Positions 381 through 61,603 of a stretch of DNA of 64,000 nt are shown here, one piece after another. Positions within the stretch are counted from its first letter, which is position 1. Each line of letters begins with the position of its first letter. The translations under genes were made by a program, and so were the position numbers. The stretch comes from Pseudomonas phage BRkr, in the sequence record LC765218.1, one strand, 5' to 3'. The notes under the pieces were generated by a model. It was not told the DNA's origin. It was given only the letters and a program-made list of their open reading frames with translations, and searched no databases.

Positions 381-705
381 AATCGTAAGTCGTAACCTAC
401 TGCAATCCACTGGTGCTTGGGCAGTCGTCCATAACCGTGCTACCATGAACTTCATTGCTATCGGTCATGACCGTAAGGTTATTAAAGGTATCAGTCTGGG
501 TTATCCGGTGAATGTTGGTGATGTCGATTTCAGTCATGTCGTGGATGTCCCTATGACCTTCGAAATCAGTTATCAAAATGATCCTCATCTGGGTCATCCT
601 ACTGGTAATATGGAAGCTCTTCTGAAAGCTATTGAAGAAACTACCCATAAAACTCTAGGTCTTCCTAGCAAGTTGACCGTAGCTTCTAACGATGGAGGTG
701 TTTAA
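367..705 (+). CDS. hypothetical protein
   Basis: ATG at 367 (track start 361 is TTG); stop overlaps td start (TAATG). Confidence 0.5.
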   Translation: MTISEIVSRNLLQSTGAWAVVHNRATMNFIAIGHDRKVIKGISLGYPVNVGDVDFSHVVDVPMTFEISYQNDPHLGHPTGNMEALLKAIEETTHKTLGLPSKLTVASNDGGV

Positions 706-2048
706 TGCATCAGTATCTACAACTACTTGAAGATACCCAGAAGTACGGTGTATTTAAAGGTGACCGTACTGGTACGGGTACTACCTCTTTGTTCGGTAGA
801 CAGTTCCGCTATGATCTTCGTAACGGTAACCTCCCTGTAGTGACCACCAAGAAGATTCATCTTCCGTCGGTTGAAGAAGAACTCAACTGGATGAAGTCTG
901 GTGACACTCGCCTTGAGTATCTCCTGAGCAAGAACGTTACCATTTGGAATGAATGGGTTAAACCAGGTACTGAAGTATTTGAAATTGTTTCTGATGAGTG
1001 GTTAACCACGGCTGTTCAGAAAAAGTTCAAAAACGTTCCATTTGAAATGCACTTCAGTAATGAGATCGGTGATGTTGATTGGAAGTGGCTTGAACCCGAG
1101 CAGGGTACCCCAGCTAAACTTCTGATTAATCTGAAGACGTGGGCCGATACGGAACGCTTTGGTCCTGGTCCTAGTGCTTATGATTATTACGGCATGGCTC
1201 TACGTGTTTATCGCATCACTATTGGCGATGCAAAGATCGTAGTCAAAGACAAAGATGGTTCTCTTGTTGCTTACCGTTTAATCGGTGGTGACCTTGGTCC
1301 TGTCTACGGCAAGACATGGCGTGATATCGATGACGTTCGAATTGTCCCCAAAGTCGACTGGGTTAACTACGAGAAACGTGGTTTTAAATTCGTGGTAGAC
1401 GTACCTGGTGAAGACTATACTAAAGACGAGTGTGTTATTCGTCGACATGTGGATCAGGTTCAGGAACTCTTGTATCAGTTGGAGCATAATCCGGATAGTC
1501 GTCGTCTGATTATCTGCGCTTGGGATCCTCGGTTGGTTGAAGATCAAGCACTACCTCCATGCCACGCATTTATTCAGTTCTGGACTCGTGAGCTGACTCT
1601 AGAAGAACGTTATGAATGGGCGCAGGAAAATGATCCAGAATCACAGAACATTTATCTAGAGGATCAGCAACCTGAAACTGGACACGAGCTATGGGATAAA
1701 CTCGGGGTTCCGAAACGAGCTATCAGTTGCCAACTCTATCAAAGATCGGCGGACGAATTTTTGGGCGTGCCCTTTAACATCATGTTCTATTCGCTGATGA
1801 CCCATCAATTGGCGAACCAGTTTAACATGGTAGCAGAAGAGTTCATCTGGACTGGTGGTGACTGTCACATCTACAGTAACCATGAGGAACAGGTTACTCT
1901 GCAACGTTCGCGGAATACTTATCCTACTCCTACCATCCGCTTCAAGCCTGAGGCCAAAGGTAAACCTTTCCTTGATATCACTCGGGAAGATTACGAGATT
2001 CTGGATTATCAGTTCCATCCGCACATTGCTGGTAAAGTTGCTGTTTAA
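705..2048 (+). CDS. td: thymidylate synthase with two large insertions (447 aa)
   Basis: Motifs FGRQFRYDL, DLGPVYGKTWR, RRLIICAWDP, PPCHAFIQF, CQLYQRSADEFLGVPFNI; RBS GGAGG; ~110 aa and ~40 aa insertions relative to canonical ThyA. Confidence 0.9.
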   Translation: MHQYLQLLEDTQKYGVFKGDRTGTGTTSLFGRQFRYDLRNGNLPVVTTKKIHLPSVEEELNWMKSGDTRLEYLLSKNVTIWNEWVKPGTEVFEIVSDEWLTTAVQKKFKNVPFEMHFSNEIGDVDWKWLEPEQGTPAKLLINLKTWADTERFGPGPSAYDYYGMALRVYRITIGDAKIVVKDKDGSLVAYRLIGGDLGPVYGKTWRDIDDVRIVPKVDWVNYEKRGFKFVVDVPGEDYTKDECVIRRHVDQVQELLYQLEHNPDSRRLIICAWDPRLVEDQALPPCHAFIQFWTRELTLEERYEWAQENDPESQNIYLEDQQPETGHELWDKLGVPKRAISCQLYQRSADEFLGVPFNIMFYSLMTHQLANQFNMVAEEFIWTGGDCHIYSNHEEQVTLQRSRNTYPTPTIRFKPEAKGKPFLDITREDYEILDYQFHPHIAGKVAV

Positions 2049-2101: not shown

Positions 2102-2509
2102 ATGAACAATATCGAACTTAAACATCAGCTTGAACTCGCCGTAGAACTGATGGGTGTAGACCCTGCTCCACTTAAAATCGGTATCGCTGGTGATCGAGTT
2201 GATACTGCAACACGATGCGGTATTTTCAATGGGAAAGATCCGGGTAGAGAATTCAGTATCGGTCTTGGAATTGTTAGCCGAAAGCAATGGCTTGAACTCA
2301 CTGATGATTCCCTGATTCTCAATAAACCAAATAAAGATCCGGTTGTCATTCCCTATGACGCTATCTATGAGTTGAACATTCCTCTGGAATATGGCGAACA
2401 AGCAGAAAAAGAAGGTTGGATGTATTACAACCTTCTCGGGGAATCGATGTTCATGTATTTGGATACCGGTAAAGAAGAGAAACTTCAACTAGCTAAGGTA
2501 GAAGCCTGA
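2102..2509 (+). CDS. hypothetical protein
   Basis: ATG with RBS GGAGG; ATGA overlap with next gene. Confidence 0.6.
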   Translation: MNNIELKHQLELAVELMGVDPAPLKIGIAGDRVDTATRCGIFNGKDPGREFSIGLGIVSRKQWLELTDDSLILNKPNKDPVVIPYDAIYELNIPLEYGEQAEKEGWMYYNLLGESMFMYLDTGKEEKLQLAKVEA

Positions 2510-3333
2510 TGGATCCACGACACCCAGTTAGCGATGAAATGCGCGCAACGGTAAACGCTGAACTTGACCGAATTGAGAGGAAGTACGGTGTAAAGATTAT
2601 TTACGCTTGTGAGTCTGGTAGTCGTGGTTGGGGTTTTGCTTCTACTAACAGTGACTATGATGTTCGTTTCATCTACGTTAACCATCCGAGTCATTACGTT
2701 CGTGTAGATAACGAAGGTCGTGACACTATCGAGGAGATGGTATCGAAAGAACTCGATCTAGCTGGTTGGAATATCACCAAGACTCTACAGTTGGCTTATA
2801 AGTCCAACCCAACTCTGTTGGAATGGCTAAACTCTCCGATCGTCTATCGGAAGAATCAATGGGACTACGATCTGATTCGTTCCTATGCCATCAAGCACTT
2901 CATTCCTGAATCGAGCTTCATGCATTATATCTCCATGGCCAAACAAACCAAGATGCGATGGCTGTCGGATGATAAGGTTCGAATGAAGAAATACTTCTAT
3001 GCTTTGCGTCCTCTACTTGCAGCATTGTGGGTAGAGACCAGTCGTGAACATCCACCCATGGTGTTCCATGAACTGTTGCCTATTCTGTCTGATCCTACTC
3101 TGTACAAGCGTATCCAAGAATTGGTTAACGCTAAGGTTGGAGCTACTGAGCAGGATCTCGTTGACCGTTGCCCAGTTCTTGATCGGTTCATTGATTTCCA
3201 TCTGGCTAAAGAGAAACCAAACTTCGGCGAATACGAACGTCCGGATATCTACAGGCTCAGTGAACTCGCTTGGCACTTCGTTGATCAATACAAGTTCGAC
3301 ACGTTCCAGTTACTACATGGTACTGAAAAATGA
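2509..3333 (+). CDS. nucleotidyltransferase-domain protein (Pol-beta superfamily-like)
   Basis: Motif ACESGSRGWGFASTNSDYDVRFIY typical of predicted nucleotidyltransferases (YcgL/COG3541-like). Confidence 0.55.
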   Translation: MDPRHPVSDEMRATVNAELDRIERKYGVKIIYACESGSRGWGFASTNSDYDVRFIYVNHPSHYVRVDNEGRDTIEEMVSKELDLAGWNITKTLQLAYKSNPTLLEWLNSPIVYRKNQWDYDLIRSYAIKHFIPESSFMHYISMAKQTKMRWLSDDKVRMKKYFYALRPLLAALWVETSREHPPMVFHELLPILSDPTLYKRIQELVNAKVGATEQDLVDRCPVLDRFIDFHLAKEKPNFGEYERPDIYRLSELAWHFVDQYKFDTFQLLHGTEK

Positions 3334-3920
3334 ACGGCGGATTAGAGATGGCTATTATAAATGCAGCAGCGGCACGTTCCCCACACGGTTACAGTGAATC
3401 CATCGGCTGTAAGATAACTACCCGTAAGGAACCGTACGTGCCTATTTCCAAATGGGTTAAATTACGGTGTGTCGTATTGTATCTACTCTGTCTGTTATTC
3501 TTGAGTGGCGCAATCTACAACAGCTTGTATTCGGAATACGTAACCAAACGTAAGACGGAGGTGATTCTAACTTGGAAGTGGGAGGAATCTTACAAGTACA
3601 AGAATGGCGTTTATACCGAACTAATGAGTCGTTGGGAAGGGAAGATGAAAGGAAAACCTTTCGTCTATGAAACCAAGCTGGATAATTACACCTATCACCA
3701 TGTTCCCGTAGGTACAAATTATGTCCTCGATATCGCCCCGCGCGATGTTGATGAAAGTAATAGCCTATGGATTATCATGAGCTTGGTATGGGCAGCTTTA
3801 GCTGCCATCTTGGGTGGACCTGCAATGTGGTTCAGTGTGAGACCATGGTTTGTTGATGTAGAACTCCGGAGGAAAGAGAAAGAATGTGCTATGAAAGAAG
3901 AATCATCCCACTCGCAATAA
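3330..3920 (+). CDS. membrane protein (2 predicted TM segments)
   Basis: ATGA overlap; hydrophobic segments VVLYLLCLLFLSGAIY and WIIMSLVWAALAAILGG. Confidence 0.5.
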   Translation: MNGGLEMAIINAAAARSPHGYSESIGCKITTRKEPYVPISKWVKLRCVVLYLLCLLFLSGAIYNSLYSEYVTKRKTEVILTWKWEESYKYKNGVYTELMSRWEGKMKGKPFVYETKLDNYTYHHVPVGTNYVLDIAPRDVDESNSLWIIMSLVWAALAAILGGPAMWFSVRPWFVDVELRRKEKECAMKEESSHSQ

Positions 3921-4270: not shown

Positions 4271-5524
4271 ATGACTACTCAAAATTACGTTATGCTGAAC
4301 GAACAAAATGAATTCCCAATCAAAGGCTGGGTTAAGGGCGTACCGGTTGAAGCCGATGCTAAGCGTCAGCTGAAAAACATTGCGGGACTCCCGTTCATTT
4401 ACAAGCATTTGGCAGTAATGCCTGATGTCCATCTTGGGACCGGTGCTACCATCGGTTCTGTTATCGCTACTCGGGGTGCAATCATTCCGTCTGCGGTAGG
4501 GGTCGATATTGGGTGCGGAATGGCCTGCCAGCTGACTGATCTGACAGCTAACGACATGACTCGTGGCCTACAACATCTTCGATATAGAATCGAGTCCCGT
4601 ATCCCCCATGGTCGTACTGACAATGGCGGACCTAACGACCGTGGTGCATGGAGTGACTTCAACCTCGTTTACAAGAAACTCGAACCAGAACTCCAAGTTC
4701 AGGTTAAGAAGCTTGAAGAGGAACTGAAGCTCATTGTAGCTAAACACCCCAAACTGGGTAAAGCAGCTAACCGTGCGTTCAACCATGCTGGTACCCTCGG
4801 CACTGGTAACCACTTCGTCGAAATCTGTCTGGATGAACAAGATCGAGTTTGGATCATGCTCCATTCGGGTTCTCGTGGGATCGGTAACGCTATTGGTCGG
4901 TACTTCATCGAGAAAGCAAAAGAGGAGATGCGGCTCTACCACATCAACCTGCCTGATCAGGACCTCGCTTATCTGCCGGAAGGTACCAAGTACTACAACG
5001 ATTACATCGAAGCTGTACATTGGGCTCAGCGTTATGCAGCACTCAACCGTACCATCATGATGCGGGCGACCATTGAGGCTGTAGCTGATTACATGGGTCG
5101 TCCAATCAATACCAGTCTCACTGCGGTCAACTGCCACCACAACTACGTGTCGTTCGAGAATCACTTCGGTGCGAAAGTATCCGTTACTCGTAAAGGCGCT
5201 GTACGGGCAGATGAAGGCATGTATGGTATTATCCCTGGATCGATGGGTGCAAAGAGCTTCATCGTGAAAGGTAAAGGGAACCGCGAGTCCTTCTGTTCGT
5301 GTTCGCACGGAGCAGGACGTGTCATGTCCCGAACCCAAGCCGCTAAGACTTTCACTCTTGAAGATCATGCTCGTGATACTGCCGGTATAGAATGCCGGAA
5401 AGACATTGACGTAATCGACGAGACTCCAAAGGCTTATAAGAACATCGAAGACGTAATGGCTGCTCAGGATGACCTCATTGAGATCGTCCACACCCTGCGT
5501 CAAATTGTTTGCGTCAAGGGCTAA
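4271..5524 (+). CDS. rtcB: RtcB RNA-splicing ligase (3'-phosphate/5'-OH RNA ligase)
   Basis: Motifs MPDVHLGTGATIGSV, GVDIGCGM, NHAGTLGTGNHFVEI, SCSHGAGR; RBS GGAG. Confidence 0.9.
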   Translation: MTTQNYVMLNEQNEFPIKGWVKGVPVEADAKRQLKNIAGLPFIYKHLAVMPDVHLGTGATIGSVIATRGAIIPSAVGVDIGCGMACQLTDLTANDMTRGLQHLRYRIESRIPHGRTDNGGPNDRGAWSDFNLVYKKLEPELQVQVKKLEEELKLIVAKHPKLGKAANRAFNHAGTLGTGNHFVEICLDEQDRVWIMLHSGSRGIGNAIGRYFIEKAKEEMRLYHINLPDQDLAYLPEGTKYYNDYIEAVHWAQRYAALNRTIMMRATIEAVADYMGRPINTSLTAVNCHHNYVSFENHFGAKVSVTRKGAVRADEGMYGIIPGSMGAKSFIVKGKGNRESFCSCSHGAGRVMSRTQAAKTFTLEDHARDTAGIECRKDIDVIDETPKAYKNIEDVMAAQDDLIEIVHTLRQIVCVKG

Positions 5525-5531
5525 CCCGAAC

Positions 5532-5547
5532 GGGGACTTCGGTCCCC
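5532..5547 (+). terminator. hairpin GGGGAC-TTCG-GTCCCC
   Basis: 6 bp stem, UUCG loop, weak T tract. Confidence 0.5.
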
Positions 5548-5571
5548 ATAACTTTCCTAAAGGAAAAATAA

Positions 5572-6459
5572 ATGATTCGAATTACTCAGCTTCACGGTAA
5601 CGGCCTGGCAGATCACTACGATTGTCAGCCCTTTAAATTCCCTGGCGGTGAGATCGGTATCAAGATCCCTCTGAAAGATCACAGAAAGAAAGGTGAACAA
5701 TTCATAGTCAATGCTTGGCTTCGTAATAGCGATGACATCATGGAACTGTTCCTGGTGTTCGATGCTATTCGTCGTCAACGTATTCGTCCTGAAATGCACC
5801 TGGTTATTGGTTATCTGCCGTATGCACGACAAGATCGTGTTTGCGATGAAGGTGAACCTTTGTCGATCAGTGTGATGACTAGCTTGATCAACGCATTGGA
5901 TGCTACATCCGTGTGTTTGTACGATCCGCACAGCAATGTGTCGCTACCGCTCATCAACAACTGTCGTGAAATCACCCAAGCTGATATTATCAAGAGCTGG
6001 GTATGTGTAGAAGGACAACTTCTGGAAACTCCACAAGAATGGTGGTTGGTTGCCCCTGATGAAGGTGCACGTAAAAAGATCGAAGCCATTGCAAAAGAGA
6101 TTGGCGCTGCTGGCGTACTCTACGCTTGCAAGAACCGTGAACTGTCGACTGGTAAGATCACCCATACGTCTTTGTTGAATGCCCATGATGTTCCTCGGTT
6201 AGCAAAGCTGTTGGTTATCGATGACATCTGTGATGGTGGCCGCACGTTCATTGAACTTGCTAAGGTTATCCACGAACAGTGCATCGTAGATCAACTGGGT
6301 CTGTTTGTAACCCATGGTATTTTCTCCAAGGGTTTCGACGAGCTGAACGAATACTACGACTATATCCAGACCACTAACACCTATCATCCTAACGCCGTAA
6401 ATGATTATCGGCATGATGGTGTACGTGACCCGAAATTCTTCTCCCATTCTGTTTTCTAA
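5572..6459 (+). CDS. ribose-phosphate pyrophosphokinase (PRPP synthetase) family protein; candidate ADP-ribose pyrophosphokinase
   Basis: Motifs GYLPYARQDR, LYDPHS (DLHA equivalent), LLVIDDICDGGRTF PRTase loop; RBS AAGGA. Confidence 0.85.
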   Translation: MIRITQLHGNGLADHYDCQPFKFPGGEIGIKIPLKDHRKKGEQFIVNAWLRNSDDIMELFLVFDAIRRQRIRPEMHLVIGYLPYARQDRVCDEGEPLSISVMTSLINALDATSVCLYDPHSNVSLPLINNCREITQADIIKSWVCVEGQLLETPQEWWLVAPDEGARKKIEAIAKEIGAAGVLYACKNRELSTGKITHTSLLNAHDVPRLAKLLVIDDICDGGRTFIELAKVIHEQCIVDQLGLFVTHGIFSKGFDELNEYYDYIQTTNTYHPNAVNDYRHDGVRDPKFFSHSVF

Positions 6460-6475
6460 TCCGAGGATCAAAAAT

Positions 6476-8242
6476 ATGTCTAATGCTCTCTATGCTGCAA
6501 CTGCTACTGACTGCTACAAACCCGGTCATGGTGCTCTGTACCCGAAAGGTACTGAACGTAAATATGCTAACTTCACCCCGCGCTCTGCTAAGCAGTTCCT
6601 GCGGTCGAAGTCTTGCTCTGCGTTCTACGATAACAAAGTCGTTAACTTCGGGTTGCAAGGTACCTGGCACGAACTGGTAGAACTGTGGGATCGCACCTTC
6701 TTCAATCTGCCTCGTGAAATTGCCGTCAAACGTGCACAACGTCGTTTCGACAACATGTGCGGTAAAGGCGTAATCAAACATGAGTGTCTGTACAAACTAC
6801 ATGAACTGGGTTATCTGCCTCTGACTGTACTGGCTATTGATGAAGGTGAACGTGTTAACATTGGTGTTCCAACTTTCGTAGTTTACAACAGTCTGGATGA
6901 CGATGATCATTACTGGCTGGTGAACTATCTGGAAACCATCGTTAGTTCGTACAACTGGAAAATGATTTGCAACGCAACCATCGCTGCTGAATACCAACGT
7001 GTATTGAACCATTATGCTGACCGTACTTGCGATAACCGTGAGCACGTTAAGTTCCAAGCACATGATTTCAGCTTCCGTGGTATGAGTGGCCCTGAAGATG
7101 CAATGCGTTCTGGCTCGGCTCACCTGACTAGCTTCGCTGGTACTGATACCATCCCGGCACTTGATTACGCTGAGATGTATTACGGTGCTAATAGCGATAC
7201 TGAACTGTTGGGTGCTTCGGTTACTGCAACCGAACACGCTGTAGCCACTACCAACATCCTGTACCGTTTGCAAATGAAGATCAACTTCCTCAAAGAGGAA
7301 GGTACTGTGATCACGCCGGAACTGCATGACAAACTGCGACTGGAAGCTGAACGTGACTACATTCTGGAGATCATTCTTCAGAAAGTTCCGGAAGGCATCA
7401 TCTCGCTGGTCTGTGATTCCTTCGACTTCTGGGGTGTTATCTCTGATGTTCTCCCGAGCATCCGTGCAGAAATCGAAAGTCGTCTGAAGAATGAACTTGG
7501 CCTTGCCAGGGTTGTTGTTCGTCCTGACTCCGGTGATCCGGTTAAAGTTATTACTGGCTACATGGCTTACCCGACTGAGTTTGCAGATCGCGCTGATTTC
7601 GAGAAGCACATCGGTGAACTGGGGTCCATTGAGTTCAGTGGCTACGAAGTTGTACGTATCGCAGGCGAATACTACGAGATCAATCACATTGCTTCGTTGC
7701 TCTCCGATTTCCTGTCTGAAAAGACTATCCCGGAAGTTGAAGTACGTGGTGCGATTGAAGTCCTGTGGGATTCCTTTGGCGGTACTGTTAACGGTAAAGG
7801 CTTCAAATGCCTGAACGAATATGTTGGCCTGATCTATGGCGATTCGATTACTGTAGAACGTACCGAGCAGATCATGTCTCGCTTGGAACGTAAAGGCTAC
7901 GCCTCTAGTAACGTCGTTCTCGGTATTGGTAGCTACACCTATCAGTACAACACTCGCGATACGTTCGGTATGGCCGTTAAAGCCACTGCTGTTCAGATCG
8001 AAGAGGAATTCGTAGAGCTGTATAAAGATCCAAAAGCTGCATCTAGTAAGAAGTCTGCAAAAGGTTTCCTTCGTGTAATTAAAGATGAAGAAGGTAACTT
8101 CGTTCTTGAACAAGAAGCCGACATGTCTTGGGCGACTCTGGAGACAGAATCCGGCGAATTGAAGCTGTTCTTTAAGAATGGTGAATTCTACAAGAACGAC
8201 ACGATGGCAAAAATCCGGGAACGGATTGCGACCTCTCTGTAA
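6476..8242 (+). CDS. nicotinamide phosphoribosyltransferase (NAMPT/NadV) family protein
   Basis: Motif HDFSFRGMSGPEDAMRSGSAHLTSFAGTDT matches NAMPT active-site region; RBS AGGAT; ATG at 6476 (track start 6401 lies inside previous gene). Confidence 0.9.
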   Translation: MSNALYAATATDCYKPGHGALYPKGTERKYANFTPRSAKQFLRSKSCSAFYDNKVVNFGLQGTWHELVELWDRTFFNLPREIAVKRAQRRFDNMCGKGVIKHECLYKLHELGYLPLTVLAIDEGERVNIGVPTFVVYNSLDDDDHYWLVNYLETIVSSYNWKMICNATIAAEYQRVLNHYADRTCDNREHVKFQAHDFSFRGMSGPEDAMRSGSAHLTSFAGTDTIPALDYAEMYYGANSDTELLGASVTATEHAVATTNILYRLQMKINFLKEEGTVITPELHDKLRLEAERDYILEIILQKVPEGIISLVCDSFDFWGVISDVLPSIRAEIESRLKNELGLARVVVRPDSGDPVKVITGYMAYPTEFADRADFEKHIGELGSIEFSGYEVVRIAGEYYEINHIASLLSDFLSEKTIPEVEVRGAIEVLWDSFGGTVNGKGFKCLNEYVGLIYGDSITVERTEQIMSRLERKGYASSNVVLGIGSYTYQYNTRDTFGMAVKATAVQIEEEFVELYKDPKAASSKKSAKGFLRVIKDEEGNFVLEQEADMSWATLETESGELKLFFKNGEFYKNDTMAKIRERIATSL

Positions 8243-8250
8243 TAGACATG

Positions 8251-8273
8251 GGGAGCTTCGGCTCCCCTTTATG
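8251..8273 (+). terminator. hairpin GGGGAGC-TTCG-GCTCCCC + TTTAT
   Basis: perfect stem, UUCG loop. Confidence 0.7.
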
Positions 8274-8293
8274 TCATAAAAAAGATTTCAAAT

Positions 8294-8302
8294 CTATATT
8301 AC
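8294..8302 (+). promoter_or_regulatory. conserved intergenic motif CTATATTAC (candidate phage promoter), about 30 nt upstream of ATG 8332
   Basis: same 9-mer recurs at 7 intergenic sites, always after a terminator and before a start codon. Confidence 0.45.
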
Positions 8303-8331
8303 TCTCTTGTATCCACAACGAGGTAACTGCA

Positions 8332-8730
8332 ATGTCGAATAAAGACCGTTTAGATGAAAAGAAAGAATGGCAAGAATCGAACCCAGTTCTCAATGAGTTC
8401 TGCTGGACTATAAGTCGTACCATGGGCGACGTAGCACGTACCAGTGACGACCGTACTCCCATTGTCGATATCCCTGCTGGAAAGACTTATGAAATCACTA
8501 CCAACCAGGAGAACGATATTTATAATGTCGGTCTTGAAACTGGTATGGTGAACTTCGTTGATCACCTACGCGAGAATGGTTACAAGATCATCTCGCCGGT
8601 AAGTGGGCATCCTGTCCCATTTGAGCAAGCTGTAACCTTGGTAAATAGCACAGAGCAGGTCGTACAAGAACTACCTGGTAAGTCTTTCGTTGAAACCTTC
8701 TATGATTATAACTGGGGTGTGAATACATGA
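8332..8730 (+). CDS. hypothetical protein (C-terminus ...NWGVNT)
   Basis: ATG with RBS GAGGT; ATGA overlap with next ORF. Confidence 0.6.
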   Translation: MSNKDRLDEKKEWQESNPVLNEFCWTISRTMGDVARTSDDRTPIVDIPAGKTYEITTNQENDIYNVGLETGMVNFVDHLRENGYKIISPVSGHPVPFEQAVTLVNSTEQVVQELPGKSFVETFYDYNWGVNT

Positions 8731-8933
8731 TCGCAGCGCCGCCGACACCGGGTAAAGTAACGATAGATGGTTTACGTCGAACGTTGTCAGATCAGATTGA
8801 AGCTGAAATTTCATTGGCTTGTCGTGAAATTGAACTGACAGACATTCGTTATGTAGATCAAAAAGAAATACTCGAAATAGTGCGGCGGTTCCGTAATGAC
8901 GTTCGCACAACCATCACTGATAAAGGTAAATAA
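8727..8933 (+). CDS. hypothetical small protein
   Basis: ATGA coupling upstream; stop 1 nt before ligase start. Confidence 0.5.
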   Translation: MIAAPPTPGKVTIDGLRRTLSDQIEAEISLACREIELTDIRYVDQKEILEIVRRFRNDVRTTITDKGK

Positions 8934-8934: not shown

Positions 8935-10290
8935 ATGACGATTGAAATGGATGAATTGAAACCGATCCGCGAAGGTTTTGGTGTAGTAGAAGAAACTCGT
9001 AAGCTTGCACGCATTGTTGAGATCGATGATGTTGTGAAACACCCTAATGCCGATGCTCTGGAATTGGCTATTGTTGGTGGTTGGCAACTTTGTGTAAAGA
9101 TGGGCGAATATAAGAAAGGTGATCGCGCTATTTACTGCGAGATTGATTCTCTTCTTCCTCTGGATAACGTTAAGCTCTTCGGTTTTCTTGAGAGCCGTCG
9201 GTCCGACAATCGACGTGTAGACGGTAAAAACTATCATCGTTTGAAAACTATCAAGCTTCGTAAAGAGCTCTCTCAAGGACTACTGGTTCCGATTCCCGAT
9301 GAGTTCAAAGATGAACCCGTTGATACTAACCTGACCCTGAAGCTGGGTATCCTTAAGTACGAGTCTGCTCCTCCGATGGTATCGAAGGCTCATGCAGCAC
9401 GTAACGCTCCGTGGATCGTTAAGCTTGGTGCCAAGCTGATTGGTAATCTGGGTGGCGCTCTGAAACCGTGGCCTGAGATGCTAACTAAGTCCGATCAAGA
9501 CCGCATTCAGAATAAGACCGTTGCGTTTTATAACCTGAAAGAAGACGGTGATGACATGGAAGTTACCTATAAGCTGGATGGTAGCTCCATGACCGTATTC
9601 TGTGTCGATGACAAAGGTATTCGTACTGGCGTTTGTTCGCGGAACTACGAACTCGGAATGGGTGGTGAGAAGTGGGGATTCATCCAGCAGCTTCGGTATT
9701 GGGTTGGTAACTTCCTTATCCGTAACCGTAATCTGTTCCGTAAGAAGACCTGGGTTACTCCAGAAGGTAAACTTCGTAATGGTATTATTCTGCCCCTTTG
9801 GACGAAAGGTACCGCTATCGAAGACAATAACTTCGTACGTGTAACTAACCAACAACAGATCATCGAACGTCTTCTCAAGTTCCACAAGAACACCGGTCGC
9901 TTCATTTCTGTACAAGGGGAACTGATTGGACCATCTATTCAAGATAACTTTGAAGAAGTGGCTGATTACGATTATTACATCTTCAACGTATATGAGGATG
10001 GTAATCGTGAACTCCTGCCGGCCGAAGCACGAGCTGTTGTAAAAGACCTTGGTCTGAATTATGTTCCCGTACTTGACCCGTGCTGGAAACCTTCTAAGGA
10101 AATGTCTGTTAAAGATGTTCTCGCTATGGCTGAAGGTCCATCTGCATTTAAGAACAAGCGCGGATACCGGGAAGGTCTGGTATTTAAGTCCAACCAACGT
10201 GTTCTGTCGTGGAAAGCCATTTCGACTAATTATCTCTTGAAGAAAGAGAAAGAAGAAGAGAAAGCAGCTGCTAAAGAAGACGCTGTATAA
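8935..10290 (+). CDS. ATP-dependent RNA ligase with N-terminal tRNA-binding-like OB domain
   Basis: Nucleotidyltransferase motif I TYKLDGSS (KxDG); N-terminal VKHPNADALELAIVGGWQLCV resembles the hpnADkL tRNA-binding OB fold; lysine-rich C-terminus. Confidence 0.8.
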   Translation: MTIEMDELKPIREGFGVVEETRKLARIVEIDDVVKHPNADALELAIVGGWQLCVKMGEYKKGDRAIYCEIDSLLPLDNVKLFGFLESRRSDNRRVDGKNYHRLKTIKLRKELSQGLLVPIPDEFKDEPVDTNLTLKLGILKYESAPPMVSKAHAARNAPWIVKLGAKLIGNLGGALKPWPEMLTKSDQDRIQNKTVAFYNLKEDGDDMEVTYKLDGSSMTVFCVDDKGIRTGVCSRNYELGMGGEKWGFIQQLRYWVGNFLIRNRNLFRKKTWVTPEGKLRNGIILPLWTKGTAIEDNNFVRVTNQQQIIERLLKFHKNTGRFISVQGELIGPSIQDNFEEVADYDYYIFNVYEDGNRELLPAEARAVVKDLGLNYVPVLDPCWKPSKEMSVKDVLAMAEGPSAFKNKRGYREGLVFKSNQRVLSWKAISTNYLLKKEKEEEKAAAKEDAV

Positions 10291-53975: not shown

Positions 53976-54056
<81 letters not shown>

Positions 54057-54119
54057 ATTTGAATTGAGTACTGGAATCTACATCACTGAATACTCTCGTA
54101 TACTATTAGACACGAAGTA

Positions 54120-55700
54120 TTATTTTATTTCGTATTCGACTACGGGTGTTGTTTTAGATACATCACCACCAAATCGATAGACTCCATCGGATACAACTAA
54201 CATCTCTTCATACGAAGAAATAGCTGGGAAGGTATCTCCGATTAGTTCTGGCTCTTTATTAAGTTGCACCAAAGCTAATCGTGTTCCGGAGTTATTCGTC
54301 ACATAGATGTTATTACCGAATATGATTCCTCTATACGTCGAATATTTGTTGGCAGGCGCATTCAAAGGAATGACTTCAGTTGTACTAAAATCAGAACTAA
54401 TCTTTACGTAGTCCGTTGGCGAGATGTTTGTCCCACCTATTGTTAATCTACCTTGAGATGCAACGATAACTAATTCACCATTATCGTTAAATCCTAAATT
54501 ATGATGCCATAATTCAATTGGTAGAACATCAGCAATCATGCCGATTTCATATGTCGTAAGGTTAACTGTTATAATGTTCTTATGGATTTTATCACTGCGT
54601 CCAGAGAAACCACCAACAATGTACAGTATATCGTCTTTAACTATACTAGCTGTACGTTCGATGTAATATGCATCGACTAAACCTGGAATAGCAGCTAGCT
54701 TTTTAGTTTCCCATGTGTCGGTAGCTATCGTGTAAATATAAATAGTCGGACCAGTAGACAATGGGTTACCATGCAAAATCAACTTACCATTATTGTAAAC
54801 CATATTGGTTGTAGTTGTCTCGCCTTGGAACGGAACTGTAGATGGTAACTTGGTCCATGTTTTAGTATCTCGGTCTAACCGATGTAAGTCGGACATGAAC
54901 GTAGTAGGTCCTGTTGTATATCCACAGGCCATGTAAATATCGTTGTTATCCGAATCATACGCGAGTACTGGCATCCCACGTTGCGGCGGTGGATTTACAG
55001 TCGACAATACAGAGGTAATACCTTTAAGTTCCTTTGGCGGAATATATTCAAGTACCGGTCGCCATCCACGATAACTAGTAGCTTCTGTTGGCGGATGACC
55101 ATCGTAAATATAAAGGCCATTCTTTGCCTGAGGATGAGTTGTCGATGGTGAAAACTGTAGGTAATTACCATTGGTATTTCTATTAGCCGCCCAGTTATAA
55201 CTTCCGTTTCCGGCGCCTATAAGTTGTTCATCTGTGTACTTTGCCCAACTTCCTTTAGTTGTAACATTGCCAAAAATATCCCACAATTCAGAACCTTCAT
55301 TACCTTGAGTAGCGATATCCGAATAAGGATTTACTCCAGCATTCATTAGACGAACTTTAAACATGTTCCCATCGATTACAATAACTTTACTACCATCTAT
55401 TAAACCAGCCTCGTCAAGTTGGTTTGGACTAATGGAATGGAGAATAGCTGTCTTCGAATAATAAAGAATAACATTATTTCTAGATACTTTAATCCAACCA
55501 GCATCTGTATTTATAGTACCAATGGAGTCAAGCTCAACAAGTGTTCTTAACTGAGGGTAAGTTATAAACTTGTCGCTTGTCAACTCACCATACAGACCAA
55601 GTGTCGAATCACCTTGTTCAAAGGTAGATGGACCCGGTAGTTTATTTCCTGTAGCCTTAATGAGTGCAGACAATAATGATTCGAACATAATTTTATCCAT
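54120..55700 (-). CDS. Kelch-repeat beta-propeller protein 1 (candidate tail fibre/receptor-binding protein); N-terminus MDKIMFESLLSAL
   Basis: repeated hydrophobic-GG Kelch blades; MFExLL motif 4 codons after the first ATG. Confidence 0.75.
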   Translation of the reverse strand: MDKIMFESLLSALIKATGNKLPGPSTFEQGDSTLGLYGELTSDKFITYPQLRTLVELDSIGTINTDAGWIKVSRNNVILYYSKTAILHSISPNQLDEAGLIDGSKVIVIDGNMFKVRLMNAGVNPYSDIATQGNEGSELWDIFGNVTTKGSWAKYTDEQLIGAGNGSYNWAANRNTNGNYLQFSPSTTHPQAKNGLYIYDGHPPTEATSYRGWRPVLEYIPPKELKGITSVLSTVNPPPQRGMPVLAYDSDNNDIYMACGYTTGPTTFMSDLHRLDRDTKTWTKLPSTVPFQGETTTTNMVYNNGKLILHGNPLSTGPTIYIYTIATDTWETKKLAAIPGLVDAYYIERTASIVKDDILYIVGGFSGRSDKIHKNIITVNLTTYEIGMIADVLPIELWHHNLGFNDNGELVIVASQGRLTIGGTNISPTDYVKISSDFSTTEVIPLNAPANKYSTYRGIIFGNNIYVTNNSGTRLALVQLNKEPELIGDTFPAISSYEEMLVVSDGVYRFGGDVSKTTPVVEYEIK

Positions 55701-55823
55701 TGAAAAGTGACTGTTTACAGAGGGGTGGCTGTATAGAACTTCACGTTCCTACTCCCTTTCCGTCTAAGGCCTCCCCATTATAGGTACTTACCAAAAGACT
55801 AAATCATACAATTTGCAACATAA

Positions 55824-55844
55824 AGCCCGCCTTTCGGCAGGCCT
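55824..55844 (-). terminator. hairpin after tRNA-Leu
   Basis: AGCCCGCC-TTTC-GGCAGGCCT; one wobble/mismatch. Confidence 0.4.
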
Positions 55845-55852
55845 TATTAAAA

Positions 55853-55938
55853 TGGTAGGAGCAGAGGGACTCGAACCCACAGTGCCTTACGACGGCTGGA
55901 CCTAAACCAGCTGGCTATACCAATTCGCCTATGCTCCC
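55853..55938 (-). tRNA. tRNA-Leu (anticodon UAG), type II
   Basis: acceptor GGGAGCA/TGCTCCT with G1-U72, anticodon stem GCTGG/CCAGC, loop TTTAGGT, long variable arm, T-loop TTCGAGT, CCA encoded. Confidence 0.7.
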
Positions 55939-55996
55939 ATGTAAAATAGCGCTTAACGCTAATTCTTACATATAATCACTATACCAGTATTTCTTT

Positions 55997-56935
55997 TCAC
56001 GGGTTTTCTGGATCGTAAACCCACAGGTCATTATGATAGACACCATTTGTATAACCACCAGATAAATAAATCTTACCGTTATAAACTTCCATATTGGCGT
56101 AGAACCGAGTAGGCGGCATCTTACCAGGAGGAAGAATTATATTTGACCATGTGTCAGTTTCAATATCGTAAACACTGAAAATATGATCGTTATTAATAGT
56201 GTTAGGAGTAGAACTTGTACCAGATTGACCACCGAATACATAGATCTTATTGTTAAGAGCTACGGCAGAATGTCTGTTCCTATTTACAAGACCATTCTTG
56301 TGGGGTGTCCATGTATTGTTGTCGACATTATAACTTCTGAATGTGGCAACTGACGTATTAGCTGTTTCATAGCCACCTAACGTGTAGAGGCGTCGACCAT
56401 GACTTGTTAAAGTCGCATAACGAATTTGATAAGGTGGTGTCAAGTTAGCTACTGTGAAGTTATCGGTATTATAGCTCTTAAATTCATACATAATACCTTG
56501 TGCACCGTTACCACCAAATAGGTACACCTTATTATCAATAGCTGACATGCAATGACTGTTACGTACGGCCAATCCACCATTAGAGCGTGTTACAGGTGTA
56601 ATTGTCTCACCATCAATCGTAAACTCAATCATCGTGTTTGTATCAGCAGAACCAGTGTATCCACCGAATACATAAAACTTGTTATCAACTAAACCACCAG
56701 CTGCACGTAAATTAACGTTTGCTCCTGCCGGTAGTTCTTTCCATTCGTCTGTTAAGAAATCATAGACGGATACAGTATTGAACGCGTTAGTGGTAGCACG
56801 TCTACCACCGAAGATATAAAGTTTGTCTCCTACGACAACAGAGGTTGACTGGTTTCTTCCGACGTCGGGTCCCTGTAGCTGAACCCAACCTTGCTTACTT
56901 TTATATTCCCCAATTCCTAACAATGCTTCAAACAT
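55997..56935 (-). CDS. Kelch-repeat beta-propeller protein 2; N-terminus MFEALLGIGEY
   Basis: blades LYIFGG, FYVFGGYTG, VYLFGGNG, LYTLGGYE, IYVFGGQSG, IYLSGGYTNG. Confidence 0.8.
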   Translation of the reverse strand: MFEALLGIGEYKSKQGWVQLQGPDVGRNQSTSVVVGDKLYIFGGRRATTNAFNTVSVYDFLTDEWKELPAGANVNLRAAGGLVDNKFYVFGGYTGSADTNTMIEFTIDGETITPVTRSNGGLAVRNSHCMSAIDNKVYLFGGNGAQGIMYEFKSYNTDNFTVANLTPPYQIRYATLTSHGRRLYTLGGYETANTSVATFRSYNVDNNTWTPHKNGLVNRNRHSAVALNNKIYVFGGQSGTSSTPNTINNDHIFSVYDIETDTWSNIILPPGKMPPTRFYANMEVYNGKIYLSGGYTNGVYHNDLWVYDPENP

Positions 56936-56969
56936 AACGATTACCTTTCGTCAAAATCATAACATATAA

Positions 56970-56985
56970 CCTCCCCGAAGGGAGG
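56970..56985 (-). terminator. hairpin CCTCCC-TTCG-GGGAGG (minus-strand reading)
   Basis: embedded in ACATAA...TTATGT. Confidence 0.55.
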
Positions 56986-56995
56986 CTTTATGTTT

Positions 56996-57211
56996 TTAAT
57001 CTTGATTAGCTAACCATTCTTTAAGAAGAGCAACGAAATTGACAGGCTCTTTTACAATTTGACCATTTCGACAAACTGGTACTTTTTCAATATTCGGGTC
57101 ATCCATAATTGGTCGATACCATTCCTGGAATTTCTTATTCAGGTCCCGACTAAAAATTTCCGTAATGAGTGCGCCAAGTCCATCGTCTTGGAACGGAGCG
57201 GTTTCGTACAT
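56996..57211 (-). CDS. hypothetical small protein (start MYETAPFQ)
   Basis: ATG at 57211 with RBS AGAGGAA; overlaps the 3' end of the upstream ORF by 72 nt. Confidence 0.35.
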   Translation of the reverse strand: MYETAPFQDDGLGALITEIFSRDLNKKFQEWYRPIMDDPNIEKVPVCRNGQIVKEPVNFVALLKEWLANQD

Positions 57212-57498
57212 TTTTGTTCCTCTGTAGTTATAGCAAGTTTTACAAGGGCTAGCCGGTGGGTTACCCAAGCTGTAATGAAATCTCCACGTGTAGTACAATC
57301 GTAGCTTACATGTGCTTGATATTCAGGATGGTTAATATTGAATTTATCTATGACCTTAGACCGTAGATAGTCTTCGGCTGCTTTTGTTGACATCCCTTCT
57401 ATATTTGGGAATTCTTCAATAAGTAGCTCTGACAACATTTTATTTCTTGAAGCTAGGTCTATATCAGCCTCAGTATGACATGGCATGAAAGCTGTCAT
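57139..57498 (-). CDS. hypothetical protein
   Basis: strong RBS AAAGAGGTAACC before the ATG. Confidence 0.55.
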   Translation of the reverse strand: MTAFMPCHTEADIDLASRNKMLSELLIEEFPNIEGMSTKAAEDYLRSKVIDKFNINHPEYQAHVSYDCTTRGDFITAWVTHRLALVKLAITTEEQKCTKPLRSKTMDLAHSLRKFLVGT

Positions 57499-57500
57499 GG

Positions 57501-57692
57501 TTACCTCTTTACATCCTTTGACATACTGTTATATAGCCCAGTATAAAACGACATAAAACTCTCCTTATCGGAGAGTCGTATATCGGATATCAAAACCAGT
57601 CTCTTTTTGATCATGACATCCATCGTGAGGTGACAGTTAGTGGAACTGAAGAGACACCTTTCCGTATGGTCGGCCCAATCGACTTCCCTCAA
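57501..57692 (-). CDS. hypothetical small protein
   Basis: ORF ends 2 nt before the next start. Confidence 0.35.
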   Translation of the reverse strand: MREVDWADHTERCLFSSTNCHLTMDVMIKKRLVLISDIRLSDKESFMSFYTGLYNSMSKDVKR

Positions 57693-57849
57693 TCATCGGC
57701 TTACCACTATTAGCCTTTGGTTTCCAGGTGCTATAAATGGTCACATCGAAATACTACAGTCTACTGGGCCTAATGTGAGATGTTTCTACAGGCAGCTTTC
57801 GATGAAGTAACTTTGTTCGTTACATACTGTAACCAACAGAGTATTTTTT

Positions 57850-57996
57850 TTAATCTAACGTACAGAGTACACCGATTAAACGGAACGGGCAGGTCAAGAC
57901 CCACCAAATAGCTTCAAATACTGCACCAATTATTTCACCAACTACATTGAGGGCTTGTCGCCCTTTATGCTGTTTTTCTTTTTTGACATCGGTCAT
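57850..57996 (-). CDS. very small membrane protein (48 aa, 1 TM)
   Basis: TAATGA-coupled to the upstream small ORF; hydrophobic VVGEIIGAVFEAIWWVLTCPF; below track cutoff. Confidence 0.3.
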   Translation of the reverse strand: MTDVKKEKQHKGRQALNVVGEIIGAVFEAIWWVLTCPFRLIGVLCTLD

Positions 57997-57998
57997 TA

Positions 57999-58169
57999 TT
58001 AACAAACCATAATTGGTACTTCAAGACCATTGCGTTCACAATGTTCTTCAAGTTTACGTTGAGCTTGGTTGAACTTAGCTAGTTCTTCAAGAGTTTTCTT
58101 TTGGTTATCAGCAAGTTGTTCTGGACTCTGACAATCGCGAATTGCTTTTATAGAAAGATTAGGAATCAT
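57999..58169 (-). CDS. very small protein (56 aa)
   Basis: ATG with RBS GGGTGA 3 nt after the upstream gene's stop; below track cutoff. Confidence 0.3.
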   Translation of the reverse strand: MIPNLSIKAIRDCQSPEQLADNQKKTLEELAKFNQAQRKLEEHCERNGLEVPIMVC

Positions 58170-58172
58170 AGG

Positions 58173-58707
58173 TCACCCGAAAGATTTACGTGCATCTGCT
58201 TCATTATCAAACAAACGACAACCCCAGATATAAGCTGCATCCAGTTCACCCCGGAAACAGTCTTTAACTTCTTTACTAGCTGTCTTCATGTAGTTATCTA
58301 CTGCATCTAAGAAAGAGTAACCTTCAGCTTTACCTACAAAGCTAGCTATACTGGATTCACCAGTAGCTCGATGACCTTCTTGCCAAATCTCATACTCTTT
58401 CTTCTTAAGTACAGTACCACGTTGTTCTTCTAAGACTTTCATTACTTGATCAAAGTCTTCATAACCCATGCGACTGAGACGAGCAATGAGACTTTGCTGT
58501 GCTTTACCATCTAACAACGTCTCATGCATCTCTTTGGTGGCTTCTAGGTACACGCCGTTTTGGAGGAGGATCAAGAAGTCATTAAACTTCATATATTCAC
58601 CACCCTCGTTATCTAAGACCATCTTAGTCTCATTGACAGTGTCCTGTGGACTCAATAGAATCTTAGGCACTGCGGGCGACCAACGTTTAATCAAACTTAA
58701 TGCTGAC
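58173..58707 (-). CDS. hypothetical protein
   Basis: ATG at 58707 with RBS AAAGGAAA (the track's first ATG at 58736 abuts the terminator hairpin). Confidence 0.55.
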
Positions 58708-58739
58708 ATGTTATTTCCTTTTGTAATAGTTGACATAAA

Positions 58740-58759
58740 GCTCTCCCCGAAGGGAGAGC
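58740..58759 (-). terminator. hairpin GCTCTCCC-TTCG-GGGAGAGC (minus-strand reading) + TTTATGT
   Basis: just downstream of tRNA-Tyr. Confidence 0.6.
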
Positions 58760-58772
58760 ACTATGACGCATT

Positions 58773-58860
58773 GGTGGAGAGGACTGGACTCGAACCAGTA
58801 ATGCCCGATACGGACGGCTGATTTACAGTCAGCTGGGGTTACCAATTTTCCTATCTCTCC
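58773..58860 (-). tRNA. tRNA-Tyr (anticodon GUA), type II
   Basis: acceptor GGAGAGA/CCTCTCC (A7-C66 mismatch), anticodon stem GCTGA/TCAGC, loop CTGTAAA, long variable arm, T-stem ACTGG/CCAGT, CCA encoded. Confidence 0.75.
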
Positions 58861-58904
58861 GAAATCTGGTATAGTCTTACATAGTATTACTATACCAGTA
58901 TTTA

Positions 58905-60752: not shown

Positions 60753-60820
60753 GAGTATGCTCTCAAGTAAACCATTTAGTTCATAAGATAATCAGTTTGA
60801 ATAAGTTGTAGGATGTATTG

Positions 60821-61477
60821 CTATTTCGTTATGGTTAACTCAACTTTTAAATACGCTCCGGGACTTGGAGGGTCATTAGGTTCAATAACCCGGAACGTTA
60901 TCGTATCCCCATATTTTTCTTTAATAGCCGATTCGAACGCATATATCGAAACATATTTATTATCTACAAAAATGTCGAAGGTTAGAACTGGTGGAATTGT
61001 CCTATATTCAGGGCTGGCCGGTGCCATATTTTCAGTTAAATAGATTAATGCTTCAGTTACACGTGTATCAATTTGGTATAGTAAATCATCTAACATTTCT
61101 ATATTGGTTAATCGTCCAACATTTCTATCATCCTTAATTATTTTATCGGCCAACTGTTTAGGTACAGGTGATAAAATAACATGTTTTCCTTTATATGCTT
61201 CAGCATGAGGTAATGGATCTTCTATTAAAAATACATTAATAAATCCAAATCCATCATACTCAATATCGTGTGTAGATGTATTTATGCCTAGTGACAGTAC
61301 TCCCTCACGTAACATATAGCCTTTAGCTAACACCTCATATGAATCAAGTGTTCTATGATATTTTGATCCATCTTCTATATGAGGACCACCATGGGTTCTA
61401 TGTCCTACAGCATTTATAACCTTAACTTCCATAAGGTTACTGTCATCTAAAAACAGGCCTTTTGATCTATTCAACAT
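60821..61477 (-). CDS. hypothetical protein
   Basis: RBS TAGGAGAT. Confidence 0.6.
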   Translation of the reverse strand: MLNRSKGLFLDDSNLMEVKVINAVGHRTHGGPHIEDGSKYHRTLDSYEVLAKGYMLREGVLSLGINTSTHDIEYDGFGFINVFLIEDPLPHAEAYKGKHVILSPVPKQLADKIIKDDRNVGRLTNIEMLDDLLYQIDTRVTEALIYLTENMAPASPEYRTIPPVLTFDIFVDNKYVSIYAFESAIKEKYGDTITFRVIEPNDPPSPGAYLKVELTITK

Positions 61478-61526
61478 TTTCAGTATCTCCTATAACTCCG
61501 ATATTGGAGTATAACATCACGGCATA

Positions 61527-61552
61527 AAAGAGTAGCCAATGGCTACTCTTTT
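61527..61552 (-). terminator. hairpin AAAAGAGTAGCC-AAT-GGCTACTCTTTT immediately 3' of the tRNA 3' fragment
   Basis: same repeat family as 62214..62237. Confidence 0.5.
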
Positions 61553-61557
61553 GAATT

Positions 61558-61590
61558 TGGCTCCGCGACCTGGACTCGAACCAGGGACCC
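61558..61590 (-). pseudogene. tRNA 3' half (T-arm CCTGG-TTCGAGT-CCAGG + acceptor 3' strand TCGCGGA-G-CCA)
   Basis: canonical T-arm and CCA end; acceptor strand is the exact complement of the 5' fragment at 62341..62374. Confidence 0.6.
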
Positions 61591-61603
61591 AGTATATTTT
61601 TTT

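Follow-up and report, generated by a model that had tools for sequence, protein, structure and literature searches.

Does a pair of adjacent genes in Pseudomonas phage BRkr, whose products resemble a phosphoribosyl pyrophosphate (PRPP) synthetase (Prs) and a nicotinamide phosphoribosyltransferase (NAMPT), serve classical nicotinamide salvage, or does it rebuild NAD+ directly from ADP-ribose (ADPR)? The window analysed here is a 64,000-nt stretch of the phage genome (LC765218.1), and all coordinates refer to the whole stretch. The second route is that of NARP1, an Adps-Namat operon (Osterman et al. 2024, bioRxiv 10.1101/2024.02.11.579819) in which Adps converts ADPR and ATP into ADP-ribose pyrophosphate (ADPR-PP) and Namat joins ADPR-PP with nicotinamide to give NAD+, and which overcame type I Thoeris, DSR1, DSR2, SIR2-HerA and SEFIR (10.1101/2024.02.11.579819). 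An original prediction, drawn from the sequence alone, had proposed a module of NARP1 type, and the published protein listings, the clamp motif of the second protein and the Adps traits of the first all agree with it: the adps-namat pair is very probably a canonical NARP1 operon. The assignment is based on gene structure, family and clade membership, catalytic and specificity residues, the lack of an NMNAT, NadR or Nudix gene to partner the pair, and sequence identity with proteins catalogued as NARP1.

The window Adps is 100% identical in sequence to LC765218_00151 (BRkr) and MN103543_00276 (PS119XW) of Osterman Table S1, an entry flagged 'Namat within 10 genes: Yes' (10.1101/2024.02.11.579819), and differs from the PA1C protein of the same table (MK599315_00291) at 10 of its 295 residues. 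Table S2 labels MN103543_00277 (PS119XW) and MK599315_00292 (PA1C) 'Adps-associated' (10.1101/2024.02.11.579819), and the window Namat has 99.2% and 93% identity to them, respectively. This NARP1 instance was therefore already listed, and the finding is a re-identification of a known, catalogued case and no discovery; what it confirms is that a counter-defence pathway, real and only lately described, could be recognised by reading a sequence by itself. The GenBank names of the two genes, 'ribose-phosphate pyrophosphokinase' and 'nicotinamide phosphoribosyltransferase', mask the NARP1 role.

Organization of the gene pair

The elements of the locus are as follows:
5532..5547, + strand: upstream hairpin GGGGAC-UUCG-GUCCCC, between the RtcB stop codon and adps, at the 5′ boundary of the gene pair
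5561..5564, + strand: AGGA ribosome-binding site, read from the sequence, 7 nt before the adps ATG
5572..6459, + strand: adps, 295 amino acids, Prs-like, putative ADP-ribose pyrophosphate synthetase by family assignment
6463..6467, + strand: GAGGA ribosome-binding site, within the intercistronic spacer, 8 nt before the namat ATG
6476..8242, + strand: namat, 588 amino acids, NAMPT-like, putative nicotinamide ADP-ribose transferase by family assignment
8250..8267 (to 8270 with UUU), + strand: terminator-like hairpin GGGGAGC-UUCG-GCUCCCC, then UUUAU, 8 nt past the namat stop codon

As predicted, the second gene starts after a 16-nt gap on the same strand (adps stop at 6459, namat ATG at 6476) and has a ribosome-binding site of its own. 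Since UUCG hairpins flank the pair and the spacer showed no predicted RNA structure on folding, adps and namat look like a single transcription and translation unit. The downstream hairpin folds at -19.7 kcal/mol (z = -4.5), and none of 200 shuffled sequences was equally stable (terminator scan and folding). For the upstream hairpin (fold of 5522-5571: -15.7 kcal/mol, z = -2.3) a role as terminator is uncertain because no T-run follows it. The longest mechanical open reading frame (ORF) of namat begins at 6401, but we preferred the start at 6476 because of the GAGGA 8 nt upstream, the annotated start in PS119XW and the alignment of homologue N-termini with the one that this start gives (MSNALYAATATDCYK). 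A sigma-70 promoter scan found no enrichment (10 found versus 9.4 expected). The phiKZ-like phages use their own RNA polymerases, and such a scan is probably not appropriate for them.

Two ORFs on the opposite strand, one of 438 amino acids over namat (6797..8113, - strand) and one of 311 amino acids over rtcB (4568..5503, - strand), were considered as overlapping genes and rejected as codon-bias artefacts: namat and rtcB are nearly devoid of the codons TTA, CTA and TCA, and each antisense frame ends precisely where its sense gene has its only CTA codon.

The first protein is of the Adps type

The Prs motifs that had been noted from the sequence were all located in the 295-amino-acid protein: PYARQDR (residues 83-89), DPHS (118-121) and DDICDGGRT (217-225). 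It matches Pfam Pribosyltran_N (2e-10), TIGR01251 (1.2e-29) and PHROG 619 (1.9e-80). A classical salvage pathway, in which a true Prs and a true Nampt (NadV) would make nicotinamide mononucleotide (NMN) from ribose-5-phosphate and nicotinamide, leaving the completion of NAD+ to host PncC/NadD/NadE or to an NMNAT, finds its first argument here, as the Pfam, NCBIfam and GenBank annotations carry exactly those names. However, when judged as a canonical Prs the protein failed: all 11 matching NCBIfam Prs models scored it below their curated cutoffs. With TIGR01251 it reached 103.2 bits versus a cutoff of 113, the match ending at model position 273 of 309, and the equivalog and subfamily models gave 40-90 bits versus cutoffs of 296-536. 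PHROG 619, the family of the biochemically verified ICP1 Adps, is partly discriminating, with 271-320 bits for Adps-type proteins (window 271, ICP1 285, Pakpunavirus K5 320) versus 193 for Escherichia coli Prs.

Part of the canonical fold is also missing. Two signs mark the Adps family: the alpha11-alpha12 module at the C-terminus of PRPS is lost, and the pyrophosphate (PP) loop is remodelled and conserved (PMC13586617). The window protein has no Pfam match to PF14572 (110 bits for E. coli Prs), and PF13793 gives it just 41 bits, compared with 179 for E. coli Prs. The alignment pairs nothing in it with roughly the final 40 residues of E. coli Prs; thus the C-terminal regulatory/filament module of canonical Prs is absent, as is its N-terminal helix.

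In the structure of ICP1 Adps the catalytic residue is Lys185, and the mutation K185A abolishes ADPR-PP formation; the acceptor residues are Arg87, His121, Asp161, Asp212, Asp213 and Asp216 (PMC13586617). We mapped the ICP1 residues through a MAFFT alignment with the GenBank ICP1 gene, the ICP1 structure not being among the PDB sequence matches. The following two elements could be placed:
6130..6132, + strand: codon of Adps Lys187, aligned with the catalytic Lys185 of ICP1 Adps
6220..6249, + strand: PP loop DDICDGGRTF (D217-F226), aligned with the ICP1 stretch that contains the PP loop

The full correspondence from ICP1 to the window is F18 to F23, R87 to R86, H121 to H120, D161 to D163, K185 to K187, D212/D213 to D217/D218, C215 to C220 and D216 to D221. 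Canonical PRPS has largely the same catalytic and acceptor residues, so these show competence and not specificity. The PP loop reads DDICDGGRTF in the window, Felix O1, phi92 and RP12, DDICDGAASF in ICP1 and DDMIDTGGTL in E. coli Prs. The residues that bind ADPR had been singled out beforehand as informative, and their inspection gave a divided answer: the acceptor residues are kept and, of the adenine contacts of ICP1 (F18′, R87 and F92), F23 and R86 are present, but F92 has become C91.

The catalytic lysine, the remodelled loop, the missing C-terminal module and the sub-cutoff Prs scores together support an Adps-type protein. The published data on relatives likewise speak against a true Prs, since the SPbetaL1 homologue had no detectable PRPP-synthetase activity (Osterman et al. 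2024, 10.1101/2024.02.11.579819), and 97% of Adps-clade genes adjoin a Namat gene, which bacterial prs genes rarely do (10.1101/2024.02.11.579819).

The second protein carries the Namat clamp

Both active-site motifs attributed to the NAMPT-like protein, DFSFRGMSG (residues 197-205) and SAHLTSFAGTDT (214-225), were found in its 588 amino acids, together with matches to Pfam NAPRTase (6.5e-34), PHROG 448 (3.8e-175) and NCBIfam NF006629 (5.4e-133; 444 bits versus a cutoff of 405). These matches, like those of the first protein, are far beyond chance and put the superfamily out of doubt. The top match of the NAMPT-like protein among solved structures is the SPbetaL1 Namat (9W5W/9W5X; 1e-102, 348 bits), human NAMPT scoring 155 bits. 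The alignment shows that the Nampt-like catalytic core is fully conserved, including the nicotinamide- and ribose-phosphate-binding residues (SPbetaL1 to window: D13 to D12, Y15 to Y14, F189 to F198, S190 to S199, R192 to R201, D215 to D224, A242 to A251, R306 to R349, D308 to D351, G360 to G455 and D361 to D456). The histidine of the core is catalytic and conserved in Nampt and Namat (PMC12774641).

What sets Namat apart is an adenine clamp in two parts (PMC12774641). Its helix (SCH) follows the consensus GS-X-phi1-X-phi2-X-phi3-TRD, X being aromatic in most cases, and its variable loop (SCL), which supplies an adenine-stacking residue, has Arg, Lys or Tyr at the third position. The elements of the window protein are:
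6584..6637, + strand: SCL clamp loop, approximately residues 37-54, from alignments, third residue Lys39
7235..7237, + strand: codon of His254 in an ATEH motif, catalytic histidine of the Nampt/Namat core by alignment
7259..7363, + strand: insertion 1, approximately residues 262-296, from HMMER domain breaks against 9W5X and MAFFT
7562..7732, + strand: insertion 2, approximately residues 363-419, directly after RPDSGDPVKVITGY, from HMMER domain breaks against 9W5X and alignments
7928..7960, + strand: SCH clamp helix GSYTYQYNTRD, residues 485-495, a regular-expression match that fits the published Namat consensus

The third SCL residue, as aligned, thus belongs to the allowed class, in a loop ~9 amino acids longer than that of SPbetaL1.

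We compared the clamp in a panel of nine proteins assembled from retrieved loci plus the sequence of 9W5X. Six are encoded next to an Adps gene (window, Pakpunavirus K5, Felix O1-like fBSPA4, Staphylococcus Kayvirus SDQ, ICP1 and SPbetaL1) and three are not (the KVP40-like R10Z Nampt, T4-like Toast_ER48 and the Moby Nampt, which has an NMNAT gene directly upstream). The motif GS[YF][TS]YQ[YFC]xTRD occurs in all six of the former, and all three of the latter have GGGLLQxxxRD instead, which counts against classical salvage. In a neighbour-joining tree of the nine proteins, a small sample, the window Namat stands beside that of K5 inside the Adps-linked group. General profiles are of no help on this point: PHROG 448 proved useless as a discriminator of Namat from Nampt (window 584 bits, R10Z 548), which leaves some room for a true Nampt. 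Bit scores against PDB entries were also set aside in favour of motif and gene adjacency, since 9KE8/9KEO reached 321 bits, close to the 348 of the SPbetaL1 Namat. The entries 9KE8/9KEO are a solved 'nicotinamide phosphoribosyltransferase' with an intermediate clamp motif, GAQTYQRNTRD, and we found no citing paper in the literature searched.

At 588 amino acids the protein is indeed longer than a classical NadV, as had been remarked (about 590), but this length is no anomaly, given that validated Namats have the same insertions. The gain over the SPbetaL1 Namat (491 amino acids) comes from the SCL and from insertions 1 and 2. Insertion 1 is absent from the short-form Namats (SPbetaL1, ICP1 and the Staphylococcus phage) and is partly common to K5 and the Felix O1-like phages. 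Insertion 2 is common to K5 (562 amino acids), fBSPA4 (593 amino acids) and Bas63 (sequence from Osterman Table S2), so that long-form Namats appear normal; the Bas63 Namat is the genetically validated founding member (Osterman et al. 2024). In the small panel the window Namat exceeds all other members in the length of both its SCL and its insertion 1, and these might alter its donor specificity.

One of the homologues has a peculiar 5′ end. In ICP1 isolate 2019_Mat_C (locus L001, 2501..3964) the Namat gene is annotated from 2645, while tblastn similarity begins at 2501 and a stop codon lies at ~2582, so that this isolate may carry a nonsense mutation near the N-terminus or be mis-annotated.

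Search for NMNAT and other NAD+ pathways

A partner NMNAT would have spoken for another pathway. None had been seen in the window, and its presence elsewhere in the genome had been named as a possible refutation; we found none in the window or in the genome of the sister phage PS119XW. No NMNAT, NadR, PnuC or Nudix gene is annotated among the 396 features of PS119XW, the 301.5-kb sister genome. A six-frame scan of ORFs of at least 80 amino acids in the window and in the whole PS119XW genome revealed no HxGH or Nudix motif, while it detected the positive controls (E. coli NadD, E. coli NadR and the Moby NMNAT), and tblastn of the same two sequences with NadD, NadR and the Moby NMNAT gave nothing better than E = 1.9. 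The only nucleotidyltransferase in the window, named 'nucleotidyltransferase (YcgL)' (2509..3333), was considered as a hidden NMNAT and rejected: with PF10127 at 3e-89 it is RlaP, an RNA-repair enzyme of the Pol-beta family.

These searches, which turned up no gene for an NMNAT, NadR, PnuC or Nudix protein, exclude NARP2 and NARP3. NARP2 (Nampt/NadV with a bifunctional NMNAT/NatV, as in Vibrio phage KVP40) resembles the window operon in having a NAMPT-family enzyme and in restoring NAD+. However, the NARP2 Nampts have GGGLLQxxxRD in place of the clamp motif, are ~30% identical to the window Namat and are paired with an NMNAT. NARP3 combines a PnuC-like transporter with a NadR-like enzyme; neither is annotated in PS119XW, and NadR gave no tblastn match.

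In a further variant, NARP1-AP, Adps and Namat are joined by a Macro-domain phosphatase, Adpp, as in Vibrio phage Gary, the Macro gene lying within two genes (Osterman et al. 2026 preprint). The window operon has the core Adps and Namat in common with it, but we did not find a Macro gene within two genes: the ORFs 3330..3920, 8332..8730 and 8727..8933 have no Macro match (Pfam, E ≤ 1) and no PHROG match, and RtcB and the 8248..8727 reading of the downstream ORF have no Macro match at E ≤ 0.01, by hmmscan, which is less sensitive than the HHpred of the NARP1-AP paper. Pakpunavirus K5 differs from the window in this respect, with a Macro protein two genes downstream of Namat. Its locus (L003, 1342..4853), which looks like a NARP1-AP operon, holds Adps, a 72-amino-acid ORF, a 562-amino-acid Namat, a 65-amino-acid ORF and a Macro 'phosphatase' (PF01661, 22.3 bits versus a cutoff of 22).

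Two small ORFs, 8332..8730 (132 amino acids) and 8727..8933 (68 amino acids), lie between namat and an RNA ligase gene, beyond the terminator-like hairpin, and have no Pfam or PHROG match. The first was considered as an accessory phosphatase and rejected, as it matches no family, is unlike the K5 Macro protein and stands past the hairpin. The only Macro protein found in PS119XW is gp112 (NC_070882, 101270..101743; PF01661 29.9 bits, PHROG 335 'phosphatase' 5e-38), ~140 kb from NARP1. It is possibly an unlinked Adpp acting on ADP-ribose 1''-phosphate, but is at least as likely to be AdfM, the Macro-domain anti-DarT factor that about half of the chimalliviruses encode (PMC13309987).

Comparison with NARP1 and with canonical enzymes

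The window operon is like the NARP1 of Bas63, SPbetaL1, FADO and ICP1 in having the same two families in the same order, a tight bicistronic arrangement and, as far as the window and the sister genome show, no NMNAT in the genome. The SCH motif and core of Namat, the Lys, the acceptor Asp, His and Arg and the C-D-G-type PP loop of Adps, and the absence of the Prs C-terminal module are also common to them, and with Bas63 it has in common the long-form Namat with an insertion after RPDSGD. It differs in its low identity to the characterised or compared enzymes (32-40% for Adps, 43-46% for Namat), in having the longest SCL and insertion 1 of the panel and a Cys where ICP1 has Phe92, in belonging to a nucleus-forming jumbo phage, and in lying within an RNA-repair cluster. 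With canonical Prs/PRPS and NAMPT the two proteins have homologous folds and a common catalytic chemistry, namely pyrophosphoryl transfer and the displacement of pyrophosphate by nicotinamide. Canonical NAMPT, however, has no adenine clamp, and the PP loop of canonical Prs is not the remodelled one.

Several points weigh against the NARP1 assignment. The function of both proteins is carried over from homologues only 32-47% identical to them. The adenine contact Phe92 of ICP1 is a Cys in the window, at a position that varies across the eight Adps-type proteins aligned, and the ~9 extra residues of the SCL blur which residue would stack on the adenine. Pfam Pribosyltran (17 bits, Adps) and NAMPT_N (22.8 bits, Namat) fall below their gathering scores. 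Osterman Table S1 covers the Prs family, and a listing there is by itself no proof of placement in the Adps clade. Moreover, the SPbetaL1 Namat also makes NMN from PRPP in vitro (10.1101/2024.02.11.579819; PMC12774641), which favours classical salvage, and the window Namat may conceivably carry out some NMN synthesis in vivo. Yet Bas63 overcame defence even in a pncC nadR double mutant (10.1101/2024.02.11.579819), and with the clamp motif and the divergent Prs-like protein this makes a true Prs-Nampt salvage pair highly improbable.

Proposed mechanism and role of the operon

We infer both enzymatic reactions and the counter-defence phenotype from the homologues of SPbetaL1, Bas63, FADO and ICP1. 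According to this model, a host effector of the SIR2, TIR or SEFIR type would split NAD+ into ADP-ribose and nicotinamide. Adps would then move the beta-gamma pyrophosphate of ATP onto the distal ribose of ADP-ribose, giving ADPR-PP and AMP, and Namat would exchange the pyrophosphate of ADPR-PP for nicotinamide, yielding NAD+ directly, so that neither NMN as an intermediate nor an NMNAT would be needed. The infected cell would retain enough NAD+ for phage replication, and abortive infection by NAD+ depletion would be defeated. The assignment predicts that phages of the genus Pawinskivirus may resist abortive-infection systems such as type I Thoeris, DSR, SIR2-HerA, SEFIR and SIR2-pAgo; these phages are candidates for P. 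aeruginosa phage therapy.

The operon could also be a housekeeping one that mainly tops up NAD+ for the NAD+-dependent enzymes of the phage, whether or not a defence is active. Indeed, PS119XW encodes an NAD+-dependent DNA ligase (gp253, NC_070882, 225277..227319), which implies a direct need for NAD+ during replication, the operon lies amid genes of nucleotide metabolism (ThyA, and ribonucleotide reductase further along), and NARP2 raises NAD+ without any defence system. However, the substrate of NARP1 must be ADP-ribose, and LigA turns NAD+ into NMN and AMP, products which NARP1 is unable to recycle. In Bas63 infections ADPR-PP was seen only with an NADase defence (10.1101/2024.02.11.579819). 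A mainly housekeeping role is accordingly most improbable, and rebuilding NAD+ against a defence is the probable role that we retain for the operon.

Genomic context in nucleus-forming jumbo phages

At the DNA level the locus is 99.7% identical to phiLBG22, 99.3% to HHBS36_1, 98.5% to PS119XW and 89% to PA1C, all ~300-kb P. aeruginosa jumbo phages of the genus Pawinskivirus, to which we assign the window phage as well. The PS119XW record encodes a PhuZ tubulin and a nuclear-shell protein, the literature uses PA1C as a nucleus-forming phage, and Psa21 and Phabio feature in publications on the phage nucleus. The nearest relatives of the window Namat are in Psa21, D6 and RVTF4 (61-62% identity), followed by Viktualia (51%), Phabio (49%) and Ralstonia RP12/RP31 (49%), all jumbo phages of 280-320 kb, and the NARP1 module is kept in each of them.

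Outside NARP1, the window contains RNA-repair genes on both sides of the operon:
2509..3333: RlaP (PF10127, 3e-89), upstream context
4271..5524, + strand: RtcB RNA 3′-phosphate ligase, 417 amino acids (Pfam RtcB, 6e-130), immediately upstream of the operon
8935..10290, + strand: RNA ligase with PHA02142 OB-fold and RNA_ligase domains (PF21189, 1.1e-24; PF09414, 5.5e-18), two small ORFs downstream of namat, start taken from PS119XW gp284

The order RtcB, Adps, Namat, x, RNA ligase is found in the Pseudomonas Pawinskivirus phages and in Ralstonia phage RP12 (L020, 4250..10722). In Psa21 and Phabio, Adps and Namat are near ThyA, with an RNA ligase also nearby in Psa21, and in K5 an RNA ligase and an AAA_33 kinase-like ATPase are encoded just upstream of Adps. 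NARP1 is conserved in a sub-lineage of nucleus-forming jumbo phages and has RNA-repair genes as neighbours, which would fit a need for separate countermeasures at the level of cytoplasmic metabolites and RNA. Since the nuclear shell guards the phage DNA and leaves NAD+ and tRNAs in the cytoplasm exposed, it would be sensible to cluster NAD+ rebuilding with RNA repair. The conserved order may be more than a chance grouping of accessory genes and could form a co-regulated, cytoplasm-directed counter-defence island against tRNA-cleaving and NAD+-depleting systems, and no paper placing NARP1 beside RNA repair as cytoplasmic countermeasures of nucleus-forming phages was found in the literature searched. 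A biochemical link between RNA repair and ADP-ribose or NAD+ is also possible, for instance a recycling of the ADP-ribose-phosphate by-products of 2′-phosphotransferase-type repair. Taken jointly, a meaning of this kind for the cluster order (island or biochemical link) or an altered donor specificity of the window Namat seems to us unlikely, although it deserves a little more weight than either alternative to NARP1 considered above.

The spacing of the two genes is not the same everywhere. In Phabio (L019, 5390..6456) three small ORFs separate Adps from Namat, one encoding a glycine-zipper membrane protein and one with a weak match to 2OG-Fe(II) oxygenases; none of the three has a Macro or RyR domain.

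Other observations in the window

Five tRNA genes lie at 53976..63679 (- strand): Thr-TGT, Leu-TAG, Tyr-GTA, Asn-GTT and Met-CAT. At 87 nt the call for tRNA-Asn is unusually long for its type, and it falls within ~58.9-63.4 kb, where the window has no good match in PS119XW; the same is true of 50.3-52.3 kb.

The thymidylate synthase gene (705..2048) encodes 447 amino acids, and a Pfam profile of 266 positions spans residues 2-447. We conclude that the protein contains large insertions. The ThyA genes of Psa21 and Phabio are also long, at ~1.4 kb.

The RtcB of PS119XW (L004, 3560..5764) has 734 amino acids, of which 317 form an in-frame insertion that is absent from the window RtcB, the remainder being 98% identical. 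The first residue of the insertion is a Cys and the last an Asn, followed by the active-site Cys of DIGCGM (Cys82 in window numbering), an arrangement that resembles the signature of an intein, though Pfam shows no intein domain in it.

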